From a virus (Duplodnaviria; Heunggongvirae; Uroviricota; Caudoviricetes): 42,420 nt of DNA. A program made the translations under genes and the position numbers. The number at the start of each line of letters is the position of its first letter. Positions within the stretch are counted from its first letter, which is position 1. The notes below the pieces were generated by a model. That model did not search any database, was not told the origin of the DNA, and worked only from the letters and a program-made list of their open reading frames with translations. Shown piece after piece: positions 1 through 41,052 of this stretch. The stretch lies in the IMG/VR virus record IMGVR_UViG_2700989535_000005, positions 1-42,420 of that record. One strand, 5' to 3'.

Positions 1-124
1 ATAGCTGCACCTGCACTGCCTGATGTCAGAACAGTATTTTGATGAATTGCCAAGGTTACAATGGCACAAATGCGGCACAGGAGGAAACGTGGTGTATTTA
101 AATATGGGGTAACTCTTTGATTTT

Positions 125-172
125 AATGGTGCCGATAATAGGAGTCGAACCTACGACCTTCGCATTACGAAT
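125..172. repeat. Prophage att junction: 48-bp direct repeat identical to 40975..41022 (3' part of thrW)
   Basis: Exact 48-bp identity between 125..172 and 40975..41022; the sequence is the T-arm/acceptor 3' end of the tRNA-Thr gene, the usual signature of integrase-mediated insertion into a tRNA gene. Confidence 0.85.
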
Positions 173-248
173 TATAAGAATCCGTTTCTAATTCAAAGCA
201 TTACCCCATCAACACTGCGCTCACACGTCCCATCACATCAAAACATGT

Positions 249-299
249 AAAGCCTTGCAAGCCATTGTGAGGCCTTATGTGTCTCAGTTTTGTCCCAAC
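249..299. repeat. Copy 1 of a ~51-bp imperfect direct repeat (partner at 1715..1766)
   Basis: Begins with the 12-nt perfect match aaagccttgcaa; about 38/51 positions identical to copy 2 by hand alignment. Confidence 0.5.
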
Positions 300-544
300 T
301 TGTATTACGACTTGCATAGCCAATGAAGATAAATGTAGTGAATGCCTGTTATGAGCGATCAGCAGACGTTCATAATTGAGTCGACATAAATCTTGCGAAC
401 AATGCCGTGTGGCAATCAGCTGGGAACAGTCATGTCAGCCCTCTAAAACCACGTATAGCGAGGGGCGTAGGTCAGAATAACTCGCCTACTTTCACACTTG
501 AACGATATAATTGCTGTGGGACAAAAGATAAAGGATGACATGAA

Positions 545-1117
545 GTGAGCTTCCTATCTACTCAGCAAATACATGATCAATGTCTAGCAACAACACAAAA
601 AGCTATTGAATCACTTGGATGGACTAATATCTCTGTAGGCGTTTTGAGCGATGAAGAGAGACGCCAGCTTGAAGATGCAAGTTTACAAAGCCACTTGGAC
701 TGGCGATGGGCGATGCAGACCTATCGCGGTGACGCTGTAGATGGAATACTGGATATAACGTTAAAGCTGATCGACCGTGATGAGCCCGAACAGCTTCATG
801 CGGTTATCATTTGTAAATACGACTGGCGCCGTGAGCAATTCTCAATTTGCATGTTAGAAAACTTCATTTCAGATGAGGATACCGACCTAACAGGCAATGT
901 GTTGATCATCGCACTTATTTACGCGACTACCTTCTGCCAGATCGCGGAGCTTGACGACGTTTATATTCAAGATCCTACTGAAGATGCACAACCGCGTTAC
1001 AGGAGCTACGGATTTGCCCAAGTATGGCATGACCACAGTAAGATGTCTGCAGATGTGCACGACATCCTCGACACCATACGACGGAAAGTGAATGGCATTG
1101 ACCCAGTTGAAGAATGA
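545..1117 (+). CDS. Hypothetical protein (190 aa), prophage cargo gene
   Basis: ORF with GTG start preceded by an AAGGA Shine-Dalgarno-like sequence; lies between the att repeat and the tail-fibre end of the prophage; no family recognised. Confidence 0.5.
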   Translation: MSFLSTQQIHDQCLATTQKAIESLGWTNISVGVLSDEERRQLEDASLQSHLDWRWAMQTYRGDAVDGILDITLKLIDRDEPEQLHAVIICKYDWRREQFSICMLENFISDEDTDLTGNVLIIALIYATTFCQIAELDDVYIQDPTEDAQPRYRSYGFAQVWHDHSKMSADVHDILDTIRRKVNGIDPVEE

Positions 1118-1207
1118 CAATCTCAATCAGCAGTCGATGGGCTGTTTGTTTAATGAACGCATTTGTTATAAAATTATCCGTAAAGTCTATAGCCAAAGAG
1201 GTTAACC

Positions 1208-1381
1208 ATGATCAAACAACATAAAAAAATCACTTCTGATAAAGCTATGGCTAGTGCAAGACGCTCTCTCGACTTCTGGGCTTCCATCGACGGCAACAAA
1301 CTTGCCAAAGTTGGTCAGAAGGAAAAAGACATGGATATGGTCGGGCCGAAGAAAGGTGTAAAGCCAGTAAGCCTCGGATAA
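1208..1381 (+). CDS. Small basic hypothetical protein (57 aa)
   Basis: ATG at 1208 preceded by AGAGG at good spacing; hand-translated to a TAA stop at 1379..1381; followed by a hairpin terminator; below the size cut-off of the ORF track. Confidence 0.4.
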   Translation: MIKQHKKITSDKAMASARRSLDFWASIDGNKLAKVGQKEKDMDMVGPKKGVKPVSLG

Positions 1382-1405
1382 TATTCATCATCCCTATCAA
1401 AAAAT

Positions 1406-1426
1406 AAGGCTCCCATTGGGAGCCTT
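1406..1426. terminator. Bidirectional intrinsic terminator-like hairpin
   Basis: aaggctccc att gggagcctt: perfect 9-bp stem flanked by an A-run upstream and T-rich sequence downstream. Confidence 0.55.
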
Positions 1427-1714
1427 ATTCATATCATAACGGTTTCCCGTTACCAAATTCGCTCTTCTCTTTGCTGAGCTGCTGTTTAGCATATGTGACC
1501 TTTCCCCAGGACGTAGGAGTCGTTAGCTGATCTGCTCCCCTTAAACGAATGCAGCATAATATTAGAAAATTCCGCTCTTGGCACATAGCAGTCCTAGAGA
1601 CAGTGTCGTAAAGTTATGGAGGATCGGTGGGAGGAGGTAAAAATCCTCTCATACAAAAATACGTAAAATCGATAACAGCTGATTTTCATTCAAACTCGTG
1701 CTATCGAATAGCAC

Positions 1715-1766
1715 AAAGCCTTGCAATCCAGTGCAAAGCTTTGTGTGTATGAGTTTTTTCTCACAT
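1715..1766. repeat. Copy 2 of the ~51-bp imperfect direct repeat (partner at 249..299)
   Basis: See copy 1; immediately preceded by the 7-bp-stem palindrome gtgctat cga atagcac (1699..1715). Confidence 0.5.
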
Positions 1767-1830
1767 CACCAGGCAATCATCAAACTCCGTATTCCTGGCG
1801 TCATTAATTATGTAAGTGATCACCACGAAT

Positions 1831-1858
1831 ATAGCCAGTGCAGAATAGCCAGTGCAGA
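1831..1858. repeat. Perfect 14-bp tandem duplication (atagccagtgcaga x2)
   Basis: Two identical adjacent 14-mers inside the ~690-bp non-coding stretch 1440..2130. Confidence 0.8.
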
Positions 1859-2161
1859 ACTGTAACCATCATCATCTTCTGGCAGCGCTTCCCTTCTCCC
1901 GTTATCCAGATTAACCGGGTGGTGCTGAGGATGAGTCCGATATCGCTTGATCCTGAATTCCACATCTATAGCAAAGCGGAAGGATGTCTCAATGTCGTGG
2001 ACACACAGTGTTACAGCCACAAATCTATAGCCTAAGAAAGGTTTATTTTGTAATTAAAGAAGATTTTAAAAACCAGATTACTCATTCATATAGACACCAA
2101 TCCCCTACAGTCATAAAATGCCTCTTTTGAATTGCTTTATCTTCATAACAAGAGGTTATTG

Positions 2162-3181
2162 ATGCTTCGCCACTTAACAGGACTCAGATTTATAGCTGCA
2201 TTAATGGTTTATTTATGCCATTTAAATACAGACTATTTTGGTGTTTTTGTAAAAGAAATGTTTTCCCAGGGATTTATTGGCGTTTCCTTTTTCTTTATTT
2301 TATCTGGCTTCATTCTTTCATATTCATATGAAGACAAGCTAAAAAATGAAGTAACAAGTAAAAGACAGTTTATTCTTTTAAGATTGGCAAGAATTGTTCC
2401 AATGCATCTATTATTAGCCATGCCATTTATTTTACTAACCATTCACTTAAAGAACTTTGATTTTTCAAAAACCTTAACAAATATTTTATTAATGCAAAGT
2501 TGGATACCAAAGGAGGATTACTACTTCTCATTAAATGGTGTATCATGGTCTTTGTCTGATGAGCTGTTTTTTTATTTAATGTTTATTCCGTTGATTTATA
2601 CATCAATTACAAAGAAAGTAATCACTGCAATATCAATTATAACTCTACTATTAACTATATATTTTTTAAAAATTATACAAACAGAAGAACTTAATCACTG
2701 GTTATATTATATATTCCCAGTAAGCCGCTTGGTAGAATTTATTTGCGGCATGATTATTTACGCTTGCTGGAAAAACAGCCGACAGCAGACAGTCGACAGC
2801 CTTTTGTTTTTAATTTCACTATTACCTCTGCTAATAGCTATATATTATAGCAACAACATAAATAATAGTCTACGTTATTCGTTATATTATTTACTCCCCA
2901 TGGTAATATTCTTTACTTCATGCATCTATCTAAGAAATGGAGTCATTCATACTATCCTCAGTTCAAAAACCCTAGAACTATTAGGGAAATCATCATTTAT
3001 TTTTTATTTAATTCATCAACCCATTATATTATTTTGCTTTAAAATCTTTGGACATAACCCCGGACCACTCTATTTAATAGCGCTCCTTGTTATAATAACC
3101 ATAGTCTCAATCATACTTTATAAATTAGTTGAGGAGCCTTTAGAGCTGATGCTAAGAAAACGAATTTTAGCAGTAAAATAA
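2162..3181 (+). CDS. Acyltransferase family 3 integral membrane protein (OafA/Oac-like O-acetyltransferase candidate)
   Basis: About ten predicted hydrophobic segments; N-terminal LRHLTGLRFIAALMVYLCH resembles the conserved acyltransferase-3 N-terminus; visibly AT-rich; ATG at 2162 with AAGAGG 6 nt upstream (the track's TTG start at 2132 is probably an over-extension). Confidence 0.75.
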   Translation: MLRHLTGLRFIAALMVYLCHLNTDYFGVFVKEMFSQGFIGVSFFFILSGFILSYSYEDKLKNEVTSKRQFILLRLARIVPMHLLLAMPFILLTIHLKNFDFSKTLTNILLMQSWIPKEDYYFSLNGVSWSLSDELFFYLMFIPLIYTSITKKVITAISIITLLLTIYFLKIIQTEELNHWLYYIFPVSRLVEFICGMIIYACWKNSRQQTVDSLLFLISLLPLLIAIYYSNNINNSLRYSLYYLLPMVIFFTSCIYLRNGVIHTILSSKTLELLGKSSFIFYLIHQPIILFCFKIFGHNPGPLYLIALLVIITIVSIILYKLVEEPLELMLRKRILAVK

Positions 3182-3183
3182 AT

Positions 3184-3207
3184 AAAACCGCGCTATTGCG
3201 CGGTTTT
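3184..3207. terminator. Bidirectional intrinsic terminator between convergent genes
   Basis: aaaaccgcgc tatt gcgcggtttt: GC stem with A/T runs on both sides; sits between the acyltransferase stop (3181) and the minus-strand gene ending at 3193. Confidence 0.7.
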
Positions 3208-3372
3208 ATCTTCAGGCTTGATGAATTTTTTACCGTCATATGACCAGCCAATACCAACATCTCCAACACATTTAACTATATCCGCTTTTTCTGGCTTAAA
3301 CTCTGACTTACCATCCCATACAACAAGATTTGTAACGACACCATTTTGTACGACTGCATAAATATCGCTCAT
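3193..3372 (-). CDS. Small protein downstream of the tail-fibre gene (possible fibre assembly protein)
   Basis: Internal ATG at 3372 overlaps the fibre stop codon (TAATG); the track ORF 3193..3387 extends 5 codons further upstream. Confidence 0.45.
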   Translation of the reverse strand: MSDIYAVVQNGVVTNLVVWDGKSEFKPEKADIVKCVGDVGIGWSYDGKKFIKPEDKTAQ

Positions 3373-4538
3373 TACTGATACTCCCACACAAGAATATATC
3401 CCTGATTTCCATTATTTCCTGTCGCTGGGCCTGATGACGCCTTATTGTATTTACCTGTCCCGCCAATACCGTATGTCCCAAGCATAGTAGTGGTTATACT
3501 TTCAACGCCAATCGCCTGATCATCACCAAGTCCAAGTGCCCCACATAAATTTGATCGTGAAACTGAATGGAACAGAATCCCTTGCCCTGTAGGAATTGGT
3601 GCTTCTGTTGCACTTCCCCCTGAAAATGGAGGTACCTGCTGAACTTGAGTTGATCCCCTTCCTCCCGGGCATACAAGCAAATCACCAAAGCTTGTATTCC
3701 CGCCGTCACCTCCAGAGCCTCCTGGTCCTGTTCCTGCTACACCACCGCTTCCAATAGTTACTTGCACGGATTCAGGTATAGACTGATAAAAAAATGCTTT
3801 AGCATATGCCCCGTTGGAACCGGCAGCACTTACACCACAGTTATTTGAGGCTGTTGCTGATAAATTGCCACTGGCACCACCACCGCCAACGGCTTCCACT
3901 ATAATTTTCGTTACACCAGGTGATTTGTGATAAGTCCCAGATGATCCAAATACCTGAACCCCCAAAAGCCTTCCTGTTCCATCACCAAGTGTTAAATATT
4001 GTAGAGTTTCCGATACGTTTTTTTTACTTAAAATTTCCCTACCATTTTGAGTCAGCGCTGTCATATCCATTGTTCCAGCACCTGTAAAAAATGCCAGCCC
4101 ATCCGGTATTCCTGTTAAGCTCGACAATGATGTCAGATTATCATTTTTATCCTGTTTATCATTCAGAATGTCTGTCATTCCCAGGTTTTCGAGAGCCGTT
4201 TGCACAGTGCCATCCGATTTGATATCGCCAAACGGATTCTTGCGGCTCAGGTATTCAACAGCAAACCCCGATCCCAGCAATTCAACAAAACCGGGCAGAT
4301 CACCATTATCAAGCACATCCCGTTGCGTTTTATCACTTACAAACTGGGCCAGAGCTGCAGCAATAAAGCTGGCCTGCCGAATAACCTTATTGACTTGCGC
4401 ACTAGAGGCTTTCCCTGCTGTAAATCCGGATAAAAGCGCGGGCAACGCTTCCCATTCCTCCTGCGATATAACATTGGCATTTCGATCCGTTGCAAACGCT
4501 TTAAAGTCATTTTTCGCCATCAGAGTAATACTCCCCAT
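3372..4538 (-). CDS. Tail fibre protein (Gly/Ser/Thr-rich)
   Basis: 388 aa with long low-complexity Gly-rich stretches; last large gene of the tail module. Confidence 0.6.
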   Translation of the reverse strand: MGSITLMAKNDFKAFATDRNANVISQEEWEALPALLSGFTAGKASSAQVNKVIRQASFIAAALAQFVSDKTQRDVLDNGDLPGFVELLGSGFAVEYLSRKNPFGDIKSDGTVQTALENLGMTDILNDKQDKNDNLTSLSSLTGIPDGLAFFTGAGTMDMTALTQNGREILSKKNVSETLQYLTLGDGTGRLLGVQVFGSSGTYHKSPGVTKIIVEAVGGGGASGNLSATASNNCGVSAAGSNGAYAKAFFYQSIPESVQVTIGSGGVAGTGPGGSGGDGGNTSFGDLLVCPGGRGSTQVQQVPPFSGGSATEAPIPTGQGILFHSVSRSNLCGALGLGDDQAIGVESITTTMLGTYGIGGTGKYNKASSGPATGNNGNQGYILVWEYQ

Positions 4539-5200
4539 GCTCCTACATCAAAACCACTGATGAATTCGTTATCCATATCAAAACCAAAAAATTTTGAGCC
4601 TTCCGATGGGGTTTCCACCGAAGGTGTTTCAATGCCACCCGCCCATACCCCGGCGGCTTTTACTGTGAGATACCCCTGTTTAATTGCCGCAATTAACTCA
4701 CGCGATACATCTGAAATATCAGTATCAGGAAAGACCCAGACCGATATCGTCATGTCCTGGTTATCGACTATCTGCATTCGCAGTCCGGATCCTGCTGTCG
4801 CCGCGTCAAGAATTGCCGGAAGCGAATCATTCCGTCCATCCCAGTTATTAATCGCAATCTTCGCTTTAAGAATGACACGATAAGTTTCATCGCTGAGATA
4901 CATGTATCCTGAATCAGGATCGTATGGTCCCTGCCATACCCCCTGATCATATCCAAGCCCGTCGGTATCCCAGCTGAAATAGACACCTGAGATAGGCTGG
5001 CTGACAACACGGCTACGTCCGATCCACAATCCAAGAATGTCAAGTTGCACACCAACCGCAGAGTCAATATCAAATGCAGTAATCAGCCCTCTGGTGGCAG
5101 CCGCAACATCAATAAGTGGCCGGGTCATCAGATCAACATGCGCAAGAAATTTAGGTTTGGTGGCGTGGTAGTTCGTGATTAGTTCGGTGTATTTGCTCAT
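4520..5200 (-). CDS. Tail/baseplate protein (P2 gpI / Mu gp48-like position)
   Basis: 226 aa, between the baseplate-J-like gene and the fibre gene; overlapping coupled starts. Confidence 0.5.
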   Translation of the reverse strand: MSKYTELITNYHATKPKFLAHVDLMTRPLIDVAAATRGLITAFDIDSAVGVQLDILGLWIGRSRVVSQPISGVYFSWDTDGLGYDQGVWQGPYDPDSGYMYLSDETYRVILKAKIAINNWDGRNDSLPAILDAATAGSGLRMQIVDNQDMTISVWVFPDTDISDVSRELIAAIKQGYLTVKAAGVWAGGIETPSVETPSEGSKFFGFDMDNEFISGFDVGAWGVLL

Positions 5201-27128: not shown

Positions 27129-27204
27129 TGGAGCTGGTTAACGGACTTGAACCGCTACCCATTCGCTTACAAGGCGACCGCTCTACCATTGGAGCTAAAC
27201 CAGC
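27129..27204 (-). tRNA. Phage tRNA-like gene, anticodon read as UGU (Thr)
   Basis: Hand-folded cloverleaf: perfect 7-bp acceptor stem, D-loop with GG, TTCAAGT T-loop, CCA end; anticodon stem has one mismatch. Confidence 0.55.
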
Positions 27205-27209
27205 ATGTT

Positions 27210-27283
27210 TGGCGGGACAGCGTGGACTCGAACCACGATAAGAAGGTTAACAGCCTTCCGTAATGACCTTTATACGACTGACC
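27210..27283 (-). tRNA. Phage tRNA-like gene, anticodon read as GUU (Asn), atypical D-arm
   Basis: Perfect anticodon and T arms (TTCGAGT loop), CCA end; one acceptor-stem mismatch and a short irregular D-arm, so possibly degenerate. Confidence 0.4.
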
Positions 27284-27289
27284 CAAATA

Positions 27290-35767: not shown

Positions 35768-35839
35768 GCGCGGCGTTACCGCATACCAATTACGCTTCAC
35801 TCGAGGCGTTTTTCGTTATGTATAAATAAGGAGCACACC

Positions 35840-36004
35840 ATGCAATATGCCATTGCAGGGTGGCCTGTTGCTGGCTGCCCTTCCGAATCTTTACTTGAAC
35901 GAATCACCCGTAAATTACGTGACGGATGGAAACGCCTTATCGACATACTTAATCAGCCAGGAGTCCCAAAAAATGGATCAAACAATTATGGCTATCCAGA
36001 CTAA
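35840..36004 (+). CDS. cIII: CIII (FtsH inhibitor)
   Basis: Hand-translated 54 aa [47 protein letters not shown]..., matching recalled lambda CIII; the overlapping 89-aa track ORF is a frame artefact. Confidence 0.85.
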   Translation: MQYAIAGWPVAGCPSESLLERITRKLRDGWKRLIDILNQPGVPKNGSNNYGYPD

Positions 36005-39600: not shown

Positions 39601-39922
39601 GGCCTGTCAGTTTCTTAAGATATCCAGACCAACCGCCACCAACTGGATACGAACAGGCCGCCTACAGGCAACACGCAAAGACCCCACTAAACCAAAATCT
39701 CCTTACCTCACAACGCGACAAGCCTGCATTGCGGCGCTTCAGTCTCCGCTGCATACTATCAAGGTGAGCGCGGGTGATGGCATAACAGAGGAAAGAAAAT
39801 GTCACTCTTCCGCAGAAGTGAAATATGGTACGCCAGTTTCACATTGCCGAACGGTAAAAGATTTAAACAGTCTCTTGGAACAAAGGACAAAAGGCAGGCG
39901 ACAGAGCTCCATGACAAGCTAA
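39572..39922 (+). CDS. xis: Excisionase (P22 Xis-like)
   Basis: 116 aa from [33 protein letters not shown] (helix-turn-helix); overlaps the int start, as is usual for xis-int pairs. Confidence 0.75.
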
Positions 39923-40962
39923 AGGCTGAAGCATGGCGGGTCAGCAAACTTGGTGAAATACCTGATATGACGTTTGAGGAAGCGTGTGTCAGGTGGCTCG
40001 AAGAGAAAGCACATAAGAAATCACTGGACGATGACAAAAGCCGGATCGGATTCTGGCTTCAACATTTCGCAGGGATGCAACTAAGAGACATCACTGAATC
40101 AAAAATTTATTCAGCGATGCAGAAAATGACAAACCGGCGTCATGAGGAAAACTGGAAACTCAGGGCAGAAGCATGCAGAAAAAAAGGGAAACCTGTTCCA
40201 GAATACACGCCAAAACCAGCGTCCGTTGCAACGAAGGCTACGCATCTTTCATTTATAAAGGCCCTGCTAAGAGCCGCAGAGCGTGAATGGAAAATGCTGG
40301 ATAAGGCACCAATTATTAAAGTGCCTCAACCGAAGAATAAACGTATCCGCTGGCTGGAGCCTCATGAAGCACAAAGGCTGATTGATGAATGTCCGGAGCC
40401 ATTAAAGTCTGTTGTTGAATTTGCACTGGCAACAGGCTTAAGACGCTCGAACATCATCAACCTTGAATGGCAACAAATAGACATGCAGCGCCGGGTGGCA
40501 TGGATAAACCCGGAAGAGAGTAAATCAAACCGCGCAATTGGCGTTGCGCTGAATGATACTGCATGTCGCGTATTGAAAAAACAAATCGGGAATCATCACC
40601 GTTGGGTATTTGTATACAAGGAAAGCTGTACCAAACCAGACGGAACGAAAGCGCCAACGGTCAGGAAGATGCGGTATGACGCAAACACAGCCTGGAAAGC
40701 GGCGCTGAGACGAGCAGGTATTGATGATTTCAGATTTCACGACTTGAGACACACCTGGGCAAGTTGGCTGGTTCAAGCCGGAGTCCCGTTGTCAGTGTTA
40801 CAGGAAATGGGAGGCTGGGAGTCTATCGAAATGGTTCGTCGATATGCTCACCTCGCACCTAATCACCTTACCGAACATGCACGGCAAATAGACTCGATCC
40901 TGAACCCATCGGTCCCAAATTTGTCCCAGTCAAAAAATAAGGAAGGTACTAATGATGTGTAA
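39799..40962 (+). CDS. int: Tyrosine integrase (P22 Int family, thrW-specific)
   Basis: 387 aa with C-terminal catalytic R...HDLRHT...Y pattern; adjacent to the thrW att site, which is the P22-type attachment locus. Confidence 0.9.
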
Positions 40963-40976
40963 CTTATTGATTTAAA

Positions 40977-41052
40977 TGGTGCCGATAATAGGAGTCGAAC
41001 CTACGACCTTCGCATTACGAATGCGCTGCTCTACCAACTGAGCTATATCGGC
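40977..41052 (-). tRNA. thrW: tRNA-Thr (anticodon CGU)
   Basis: 76-nt cloverleaf gccgatatagctcagttggtagagcagcgcattcgtaatgcgaaggtcgtaggttcgactcctattatcggcacca with CCA end; its 3' 46 nt are duplicated at 127..172. Confidence 0.95.

Follow-up and report, generated by a model that had tools for sequence, protein, structure and literature searches.

The att-proximal (left) end of the E. coli prophage analysed here (the window, a stretch of 42,420 nucleotides) carries a 3-kb cargo region that, judged from DNA comparisons, is a mosaic of two unrelated, self-contained cassettes, A and B, because positions 339-1589 match a Klebsiella chromosome and 1701-3400 and beyond match prophages at other sites. 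It is probable, if well short of certain, that both occupy a moron slot in which B supplies a surface-glycan acyltransferase and A a conflict module made of a GNAT-fold protein and a small partner. On this view the temperate phage entered the host chromosome at the thrW tRNA-Thr gene, and the 3-kb left end is its variable accessory ("moron") slot, in which recombination joined the two cassettes; its integrase and att site are of SfV type and its structural genes those of a SEN34-like myovirus. The acyltransferase-3 (AT3) gene is in itself ordinary and already annotated, and comparison of prophage sequences shows that it moves from prophage to prophage in a single block with the distal, receptor-binding half of the fibre gene. 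The GNAT pair is an unannotated, strictly paired family missed by current family and defence-system libraries.

Table 1. Features of the left end of the prophage (window coordinates).
Feature	Position	Strand	Remarks
att core repeat, 48 bp	125-172		copy of 3' part of tRNA-Thr(cgt)
Hairpin element, D1 repeat copy 1	243-297 (D1 = 249-297)	+	just inside att site
Segment A, DNA in common with a Klebsiella chromosomal locus	339-1589	+	conserved core ~476-1430
-10 hexamer TATAAT, perfect, no clear -35, upstream of 190-aa gene	506-511	+	read from sequence
Acidic GNAT-fold protein, 190 aa	545-1117	+	GTG start; phrog_4350
Basic partner protein, 57 aa	1208-1381	+	predicted two-helix hairpin, Lys-rich tails
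Hairpin terminator closing cassette A	1403-1429	.	12-bp stem, -18.9 kcal/mol, z -4.3
Conserved junction segment	1657-1708		recurs in other prophages; 81-83% identity to L003:3670-3721 and mEp460 L004:2197-2248
Segment B	1701 to ~4160		holds UmuD-like relic, AT3 gene, 59-aa ORF and distal tail-fibre half
D1 hairpin element copy 2	1711-1763	+	left edge of segment B
UmuD/HumD-like S24 peptidase pseudogene relic	1761-1972	-	C-terminal part, frameshifted
Promoter-like site for AT3 gene	2091-2119	+	TAGACA-17-TAAAAT; consensus scan, 10/12 matches, pattern match only
AT3-only membrane acyltransferase, intact, 339 aa	2162-3181	+	RefSeq WP_000943925.1; PF01757, phrog_3333
Terminator between AT3 gene and convergent tail genes, bidirectional	3182-3209	.	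12-bp GC-rich stem
59-aa ORF after tail-fibre gene	3193-3372	-	RefSeq CDS; phrog_14370 at 7.7e-28
Tail-fibre gene	3372-4538	-	tail-fibre PHROGs, Pfam Gly_rich_2

The exact 48-mer of the att core recurs at 40975-41022, where the second copy is embedded in tRNA-Thr(cgt) (40977-41052) and adjoins the integrase gene (39799-40962). Shigella phages SfI, SfII, SfIV and SfV have attP regions that match the flank at 109-297 with 95-97% identity, and the hairpin that ends this flank (-18.9 kcal/mol, z -4.1) has a counterpart in the SfII record annotated as a rho-independent terminator after int/attP. Between the att repeat and the minus-strand tail genes, which run from 3372 onward, lie three intact plus-strand ORFs, all of which RefSeq likewise annotates as CDSs in E. 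coli KSC1031 (99.9% identical). The original prediction had placed three plus-strand genes in an att-proximal cargo region between att repeat and tail fibre, facing the tail genes and bounded by two terminators; all of this stands, each of the two hairpins having a 12-bp stem.

Segment A is 96.9% identical over 1251 bp to a non-prophage Klebsiella locus carrying the GNAT pair (L005:5795-7045), and farther copies retain 476-1430 (80%) and 507-1427 (73%). The hairpin at 1403-1429, whose U-tract is weak on the plus strand and better on the minus strand, coincides with the right limit of DNA conservation in the divergent copies. The suggestion that the 190-aa and 57-aa genes could form a second independent unit is thereby borne out, the pair occurring outside a prophage at 97% DNA identity and being kept together in all 25 loci. 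Segment B is 98-99.9% identical in other E. coli prophages whose integrases or insertion sites differ, among them one at argW/intS (TW10590) and a degraded one near pphA/pinE (strain 300709); homology runs from 1701 to 4162-4672 in other prophages and to 4060 in Citrobacter.

The stretch of about 690 bp between the two units, earlier described as non-coding, indeed contains no intact gene, but it does hold the tail of the Klebsiella-like segment (up to 1589), a D1 copy, a UmuD-like relic that had gone unnoticed and a promoter-like site. The junction segment within it probably corresponds to a "capsid protein" fragment called by PGAP in locus L012. The second D1 element (1715-1763) is 78% identical to the first (249-297) and forms a hairpin of -21.3 kcal/mol (z -4.2); its homologue in TW10590 starts 14 bp past the intS stop codon. 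The adjoining relic is called a pseudogene by RefSeq in three genomes and can also be read by translation, with 51-69% identity to HK639 UmuD, P1 HumD and an Enterobacter phage UmuD in tblastn; it contains a tandem 14-nt duplication (1831-1858) and is not detected by Pfam.

The AT3 gene opens with ATG at 2162, behind a ribosome-binding site (AAGAGG) 6 nt upstream, although the open frame could also be read from TTG 2132, which would give 349 aa; the ORF is intact, not the pseudogene that the original prediction had allowed for. Its assignment to the acyltransferase-3 family is upheld by PF01757 (1.4e-30, 106.9 bits with the cut-off at 31; residues 5-320 aligned to model positions 4-325 of 326), by phrog_3333 "O-acetyltransferase" (6e-51) and by the motifs R9-X10-H20, FFILSG (44-49), R74LAR77 and WSLSDE, the published family motifs being R/K-X10-H in TMH1, FFXISG and RXXR (PMC7448272). 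The domain fills the protein, in which a crude hydropathy scan picks out some 8-10 hydrophobic segments, where about 10 TMH would be expected of a polytopic AT3-only protein. The gene is AT-rich, as had been noted, with 29.7% GC against 44-46% in its neighbours and 48.9% in the window. It is followed by a hairpin (-18.9 kcal/mol as centroid, z -4.1) with an A-run before and a U-run after, called on the minus strand by the scan. Three other prophage copies of the protein differ by 0-1 amino acids, and a Citrobacter homologue of equal length is 83% identical and lies beside a 61-aa ORF and a Gly-rich tail fibre. All close copies (seven complete E. coli genomes and Citrobacter examined) are prophage-borne at the att/int-proximal end, beside a tail fibre. 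The nearest non-enterobacterial homologues (35-45% identity) come from diverse bacteria.

The window AT3 resembles the AT3-only, serotype-converting O-antigen acetyltransferases Oac (OacA) of Sf6 and OacD of SfII in length (339 aa against 333 and 349 aa), in its AT3-only architecture and R/K-X10-H, FFXISG and RXXR motifs, and in being phage-borne with its own promoter (here a promoter-like site) and terminator between att/int and the tail fibre or tailspike. The gene order of SfII (int-attP-terminator-gtrABII-IS-oacD-terminator) puts gtrA-gtrB-gtrII and oacD in the same slot, and Sf6 has tailspike-oac-int; the likeness in location to known seroconversion genes, as originally proposed, is therefore real. 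Close kinship to Oac or OafA, for which a homology search had been suggested, is not: Oac aligns at 28% identity over the N-terminal 155 aa only (pairwise E 1e-4), a remote relation and not an orthologue, OacD gives no significant alignment (best E 0.16), neither was found by tblastn against the phage collection at 1e-3, and the protein has no fused SGNH domain and is therefore not OafA-like. The linked structures differ too, a myovirus Gly-rich tail fibre here as against an endorhamnosidase tailspike in the Sf6/SfII comparison. The closest homologue in the phage collection is the O-acetyltransferase gp49 of Escherichia phage TL-2011b (O103:H25), at 35.5% identity over 87% of the length; its gene precedes the lysis genes, whereas the window AT3 lies at the att end, and its function is, so far as could be found, known by annotation only.

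The 59-aa ORF accompanies the AT3 gene and is also found beside the Citrobacter homologue, and the C-terminal Gly-rich distal half of the fibre (~3372-4160) belongs to the same exchanged block. The joint exchange of AT3 and distal fibre had been overlooked in the original prediction. Since AT3 is exchanged as a block with the distal fibre, its likely purpose is to alter the receptor used by that fibre type. Cassette B encodes an intact AT3-only inner-membrane acyltransferase. Family and position suggest that the lysogen expresses it from its own promoter and that the enzyme takes an acyl group, probably acetyl, from acyl-CoA in the cytoplasm and transfers it to a glycan of the cell surface, the O-antigen being the likeliest; the altered receptor would bring about lysogenic conversion and superinfection exclusion. 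From position and family, and from these solely, we infer O-antigen acetylation and the blocking of superinfection. The linkage could reflect simple physical hitch-hiking; the gene and the distal fibre half may also be transferred together as a cassette whose products bind the receptor as well as modify it.

Hitch-hiking would fit a different reading, in which AT3 would acylate another envelope glycan (enterobacterial common antigen, osmoregulated periplasmic glucans, capsule or colanic acid). AT3-only enzymes act on a wide range of substrates, including enterobacterial common antigen, periplasmic glucans, capsules and exopolysaccharides (PMC9558356), the similarity to proven O-antigen acetylases is marginal for Oac and absent for OacD, and among the distant homologues from diverse bacteria the Aeromonas one occupies a chromosomal site next to IS elements that is neither phage nor O-antigen cluster. 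This reading is nevertheless judged unlikely, as every close copy examined is prophage-borne beside a tail fibre, the position is the one that Sf6 and SfII use for O-antigen modifiers of proven function, and no NCBIfam equivalog for housekeeping AT3 enzymes matches. That the cargo as a whole is decaying, unexpressed passenger DNA devoid of present function is very improbable: the region does contain a pseudogene relic and recombination scars, but all three ORFs are intact, with ribosome-binding sites and terminators, and their proteins are conserved across genera.

Cassette A is an operon of two genes that has a -10 element and a terminator to itself. The TATAAT hexamer was not called by the promoter scan, and the sequence GATATAAT is kept in L005, L013, L014, L038 and mEp460. 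Both genes had been called uncharacterised, which holds in that neither product matches Pfam, NCBIfam or PADLOC (PADLOC-DB v2, no match at E <= 0.01 for any of five proteins), but the GNAT fold of the 190-aa protein had been overlooked. This protein has no Pfam family at E <= 0.1 and no NCBIfam match, and a profile search of PDB sequences returned 0 hits at E <= 10; ten distant relatives likewise gave no Pfam GNAT family, with one sub-threshold non-GNAT match. GNAT enzymes carry an acetyl-CoA-binding motif A (Q/R-x-x-G-x-G/A) and a motif B with a catalytic Tyr (A-x3-Y-x3-G-F). A motif-B-like segment is conserved in the family (A148, invariant Y152, G156 and invariant F157), and motif A departs from the usual form (D114-L-T-G117-N-V), its sole invariant residues being L115 and G117. 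Relative to RimJ/RimL-like PA3270 and BH2621, NatD/Naa40 and the toxins KacT, TacT and AtaT, the protein is only 8-13% identical, acidic, with an atypical P-loop-like CoA motif, and has an obligate small downstream partner lacking an RHH/DUF1778 signature.

The partner follows the GNAT gene in 25/25 loci examined, at 57-60 aa and with a spacing of ~83-98 nt in most, and keeps frame, length and sequence while the enzyme falls to 48% identity; both ORFs are conserved across genera, so the doubt first raised about their conservation is answered. Equivalent small genes follow GNAT relatives at ~25% identity, in mEp460 and L052; these distant pairs lie between int and xis in phage mEp460 and after the tail fibre in a phage contig, and their partners have K[IF]D[ST]xKA and GPKK motifs in common with that of the window. 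An AF2 model (pLDDT 67) predicts helices at 11-26 and 29-43, with no PDB match and no detectable DNA-binding fold, and Pfam, including DUF1778/RHH, gives no match; its 31 homologues are all named "hypothetical". The pair occurs in prophages, integrative islands, a probable plasmid or conjugative element and unrelated chromosomal sites, for example between Mrr-like and PvuRts1I-like restriction genes and an integrase in Providencia, or adjoining a polyvalent LPD protein and ParA in Yersinia. Six integrase queries, a limited test, detected no integrase within 6 kb in 19 of 21 species-representative genomes. The family of the pair is small, a set of 1.84 billion proteins containing only 28 cluster representatives of it.

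Inherited together in relatives that range from close to very distant, the acidic enzyme (pI ~4.3-5.6) and the basic partner (pI ~10 in 23/25 loci) may form a complex, because their charges are consistently opposite; the enzyme would then acetylate the partner, or the partner neutralise the enzyme, and the pair would act as a toxin-antitoxin-like or phage-conflict module and not in metabolism. Against this, no toxin-antitoxin or defence model in PADLOC, Pfam or NCBIfam matches the pair. In a classical GNAT type II toxin-antitoxin such as TacAT, AtaRT or KacAT, the toxin would be the 190-aa protein, halting translation through acetylation of aminoacyl-tRNA, and the antitoxin the 57-aa protein. 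Such an assignment is unlikely: the gene order is reversed with respect to GNAT/RHH systems, the spaced genes do not overlap, the partner lacks a DUF1778/RHH match and a detectable DNA-binding fold, and the enzyme is strongly acidic (pI ~4.5), whereas a basic charge is typical of tRNA-binding GNAT toxins. The TopAI-YjhQ (YjhX-YjhQ) system of E. coli K-12, in which a GNAT-family antitoxin counters a small toxin, is comparable as a two-gene module pairing a small protein with a GNAT-family protein, but its gene order is opposite and there is no detectable homology, because neither window protein matches any Pfam family. Quite improbable is a small-molecule acetyltransferase, detoxifying for instance an antibiotic or metabolite, beside an unrelated or spurious 57-aa ORF, against which stand the conservation of the small ORF across all loci and behind the ~25% relatives, as well as the opposite charges, which argue for interaction. 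Possible rather than probable is the more specific proposal that the pair is a previously undescribed acetylation-based two-component conflict family of Enterobacterales prophages, islands and plasmids. It might serve in defence, anti-defence or addiction, and its enzyme would acetylate its partner or the N-terminus of a phage or host protein targeted through the partner.

If the O-antigen is what AT3 modifies, E. coli and Citrobacter provide a further case in which phages change the serotype and exclude superinfection, and in which phages exchange the modifying enzyme along with the part of the tail fibre that binds the matching receptor; this bears on O-serotyping, on vaccine targets in ETEC and porcine strains and on the host range of therapeutic phages. 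Identifying the target of the GNAT protein would give a function to a recurrent accessory module of prophages and islands, possibly a new acetylation-based toxin-antitoxin or phage-conflict mechanism.

A complete temperate phage makes up the window; it is integrated at thrW, a tRNA-Thr(cgt) gene into which the phage's tyrosine integrase gene (Pfam Phage_integrase) runs. The 3' part of the tRNA recurs as an exact 48-bp copy near the opposite end, and the cargo region therefore begins directly at the left att site. Around this copy, the sequence at 109-297 shares 95-97% identity with attP of the Shigella phages SfI, SfII, SfIV and SfV. The structural genes are SEN34-like and 96% identical to those of vB_EcoM-606R2 and related induced myophages of E. 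coli, and the lambdoid early region carries a lambda CIII thermoregulator RNA (Rfam RF01804, 88.5 bits). Rfam families were not found in 1-3400. The phage has two tRNA genes of its own, for tRNA-Thr(tgt) and tRNA-Asn(gtt). Its left end occurs at 99.9% identity in two porcine E. coli strains, KSC1031 and E41, in which RefSeq annotates the genes found here. The att-proximal slot of thrW prophages is a cargo hotspot; in two other E. coli thrW prophages (L011 and L012) it holds different cargo, namely a "lysogenic conversion protein", a LEM-3-like GIY-YIG protein, another acyltransferase-3 (AT3) protein (25% identical) and a DNA invertase.

Features of the prophage, in window coordinates
Feature	Position (nt)	Strand	Remark
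Left att copy	125-172		48 bp
Hairpin element, first copy	249-297		
Segment A	339-1589		
Cassette A	~476-1430		
TATAAT	506-511		conserved
GNAT-fold gene	545-1117	plus	190 aa
Partner gene	1208-1381	plus	57 aa
Terminator hairpin	1403-1429		
Junction segment	1657-1708		52 nt
Segment B	1701 to 4162-4672		
Hairpin element, second copy	1715-1763		
UmuD/HumD-like S24 peptidase relic	1761-1972	minus	C-terminal, frameshifted
Tandem 14-nt duplication	1831-1858		inside the relic
Promoter-like site	2091-2119		
AT3 gene	2162-3181	plus	339 aa, WP_000943925.1
Terminator hairpin	3182-3209		
Tail-fibre gene	3372-4538	minus	
tRNA-Thr(tgt) and tRNA-Asn(gtt)	within 27129-27284		
CIII thermoregulator RNA	35827-35885		
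Tyrosine integrase gene	39799-40962		
tRNA-Thr(cgt) thrW	40977-41052		

The three plus-strand ORFs of the original prediction are all present, opposite in orientation to the tail-fibre and baseplate genes on the minus strand, and the two terminators placed beside them correspond to strong hairpins (z about -4 versus shuffled sequence). The AT-richness noted for the acyltransferase gene is equally clear (29.7% GC versus 48.9% for the window). The 690-bp stretch described as non-coding is indeed free of intact genes, but it is pieced together from relics rather than empty. That the 190-aa and 57-aa genes could be a separate unit is borne out by the existence of two independently moving segments.

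These segments emerged as two clean blocks when 1-3400 was compared by BLAST with related loci, so that the 3-kb left end is a mosaic of two independent units. Segment A has its counterpart in a chromosomal locus of Klebsiella (96.9% identity), and segment B shares 98-99.9% identity with prophages of further E. coli strains. In TW10590, segment B starts 14 bp past the intS stop codon of a prophage at argW; in strain 300709, the prophage that contains it is degraded and lies near pphA and pinE. An extended comparison showed that segment B continues beyond the AT3 gene and a 59-aa ORF into the tail-fibre gene, of which it covers the distal half. A Citrobacter prophage remnant has a similar arrangement: its AT3 protein is 83% identical, a 61-aa ORF and the gene for a Gly-rich tail fibre adjoin the AT3 gene, and DNA homology spans 1704-4060 of the window at 76% identity. 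Unrelated prophages thus exchange one block that comprises the AT3 gene, the 59-aa ORF and the Gly-rich C-terminal half of the tail-fibre gene; this block may be a cassette pairing a receptor-binding fibre tip with a receptor-modifying enzyme. This block transfer is a useful detail that fits known modular phage evolution.

Four features lie in the junction between the segments: the 52-nt junction segment, the second hairpin copy, the S24 peptidase relic and the promoter-like site at 2091-2119. The junction segment recurs in other prophages at 81-83% identity, near pinE in strain 300709 and between the tail fibre and dinI in mEp460, and a PGAP "capsid protein" fragment of L012 may be its counterpart. 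The two copies of the hairpin element, 78% identical to each other, mark edges of recombined segments: the equivalent of the first copy is annotated in the SfII record as a terminator after int/attP, and in TW10590 the second copy immediately follows intS. The relic that follows is identified as UmuD-like because it is called a pseudogene by RefSeq in three genomes and is 51-69% identical by tblastn to P1 HumD, HK639 UmuD and the UmuD of an Enterobacter phage; a Pfam search of it gave no match. Past the terminator of cassette A, about 160 bp (1430-1589) are 97% identical to Klebsiella, and 1430 to about 1525 is 91-94% identical to the Buttiauxella and Providencia copies; 1430-1589 contains only one unconserved 50-aa minus-strand ORF, which has no Pfam match.

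The AT3 gene is intact. The possibility that it is a pseudogene is contradicted by a good ribosome-binding site and by the protein's 0-1 residue differences in three other prophage copies. Its product matches PF01757 over the full model (1.4e-30) as well as PHROG 3333, "O-acetyltransferase" (6e-51), and carries an R/K-X10-H motif in TMH1 (R9...H20), FFXISG (FFILSG, 44-49) and RXXR (R74LAR77), all of them reported to be common to characterised AT3 carbohydrate acetyltransferases (PMC7448272), in which the equivalents of R9 and H20 make a putative acyl-donor site (PMC7448272). Its similarity to Oac and OafA is remote: identity to Sf6 Oac is 28% over 155 aa (pairwise E 1e-4), and an SGNH domain is absent, which makes the protein one of the "AT3-only" type, like Oac and unlike OafA or OafB. 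SfII OacD gave no significant alignment, the best phage match is TL-2011b gp49 (35.5% identity), and homologues beyond the E. coli and Citrobacter copies reach 45% identity or less; judged by sequence, the protein is no close relative of any characterised enzyme. It is already annotated as "acyltransferase family protein", a literature search for WP_000943925 returned nothing on it, and it is an uncharacterised addition to the phage AT3-only acyltransferases.

A role in receptor or O-antigen modification is suggested mainly by gene position. In SfII the order is int-attP-terminator-gtrA-gtrB-gtrII-IS-oacD-terminator, followed by tail genes, and in Sf6 it is tailspike-oac-int; the cargo of other thrW prophages points the same way. 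Co-transfer with the receptor-binding fibre half would likewise fit a receptor-modifying activity matched to that fibre. Enzymes of the AT3 family use acyl-CoA at the cytoplasmic face. In the window protein, the acyl group would cross the membrane domain from cytoplasmic acyl-CoA to a glycan on the periplasmic side, of which O-antigen would be the most probable, with a consequent change of serotype and phage receptor. AT3-driven seroconversion of this lysogen is no more than plausible; the original observation is confirmed, and its interpretation is partly supported. Phase variation by Dam/OxyR in the manner of gtr operons found no support: only two GATC sites are present in the 460 bp upstream, and the gene contains a single T7 run.

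Segment A carries the pair formed by the 190-aa protein and its 57-aa partner. The former has 68 homologues (46-97% identity) across Enterobacterales, every one named "hypothetical"; Pfam, NCBIfam, PADLOC and a PDB profile search gave nothing, and PHROG 4350, of unassigned function, was the sole match among Pfam, NCBIfam, PADLOC and PHROG. An exhaustive profile search of 1.84 billion proteins retrieved 28 cluster representatives at E <= 1e-3, and none of ten distant relatives gave an above-threshold match to a GNAT family or to any other family in Pfam. A confident AlphaFold2 model from a 27-sequence alignment (pLDDT 88.4, pTM 0.87) has a GNAT fold, and the alignment contains the GNAT-typical A-x3-Y-x3-G-F pattern (A148, invariant Y152, G156, invariant F157), together with a conserved MLEN (103-106) in strand 98-106 just ahead of the motif-A loop and an atypical pyrophosphate-binding motif, DLTGNV.

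The partner gene lies 3' of the GNAT gene in 25/25 extracted loci, and its product has 57-60 residues. The spacer between the two genes measures 59-122 nt across these loci, mostly about 83-98 nt; that of the window folds no better than shuffled controls (z -0.28). Cassette A is the stretch of DNA that diverging copies still have in common, from the conserved TATAAT to the downstream hairpin. The partner has a conserved core, DFW..IDG.KLA...EK.MD..GP.K, and a pI of about 10 versus about 4.3-5.6 for the GNAT protein in 23/25 pairs. Modelling predicts two helices that form a hairpin, with flexible Lys-rich ends (pLDDT 67, moderate confidence), and a fold search with this model found no structural match. 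Very distant relatives keep the pairing: in phage mEp460, gp23 (177 aa, 27.6% identity) is followed by the 57-aa gp24 between int and xis, and in a phage contig, after the tail-fibre genes, a 182-aa relative is followed one base later by a 60-aa gene; read by eye, these small proteins have K[IF]D[ST]xKA and GPKK motifs in common with the window partner.

The pair is found in varied chromosomal settings: in Klebsiella, with a glutamine amidotransferase gene on one side, a gene for an AraC-type regulator on the other and no phage genes near; downstream of a LacY-like transporter gene in Serratia; and between pspF and an MFS transporter gene in Kluyvera. UmuDC or Y-family polymerase genes are close by in Enterobacter kobei, within a probable mobile element that also has ImmA-like, SRAP, RdgC and Dam genes, and in Pantoea, where a Y-family polymerase gene and a Mn catalase gene flank the chromosomal pair. 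Conflict-system or mobile-element contexts are provided by Providencia, in which an island at smpB places it between Mrr-like plus PvuRts1I/SRA-like restriction genes and an integrase, and by Yersinia, in which it adjoins a 2547-aa LPD polyvalent protein and ParA. In a limited test with six integrase queries, 19/21 species-representative genomes showed no integrase within 6 kb of the pair. Some copies have UmuD, UmuC, DinI and SRAP genes in their vicinity, which suggested SOS regulation, but this idea was rejected: 0/26 loci had a LexA box (CTGT-N8-ACAG, at most 1 mismatch) within 300 bp upstream of the GNAT gene.

The best structural neighbours of the 190-aa model are mostly alpha-amine/N-terminal acetyltransferases and aminoacyl-tRNA-acetylating toxins, with viral GNATs also among the matches. 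Taken with these neighbours, the strict co-inheritance, opposite charges and mobility of the pair and its defence-island or mobile-element context in some hosts point to a two-component module in which the enzyme would bind its basic partner, the latter serving as substrate, neutraliser or targeting subunit. Quite possibly, if tentatively, this is a toxin-antitoxin-like or conflict module of some kind. A plain TacT-type toxin-antitoxin system is unlikely, since the gene order is reversed, a spacer separates the genes, an RHH/DUF1778 signature is absent from the partner and the enzyme is acidic. That the protein is an unrelated small-molecule enzyme is very doubtful.

The searchable literature on mEp460 gene functions and on GNAT two-gene prophage modules has nothing on these proteins, and the pair is a small unannotated family of known fold, absent from Pfam, NCBIfam, PADLOC and that literature. 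Overall, the left end is an ordinary prophage accessory region together with one modestly interesting uncharacterised module.
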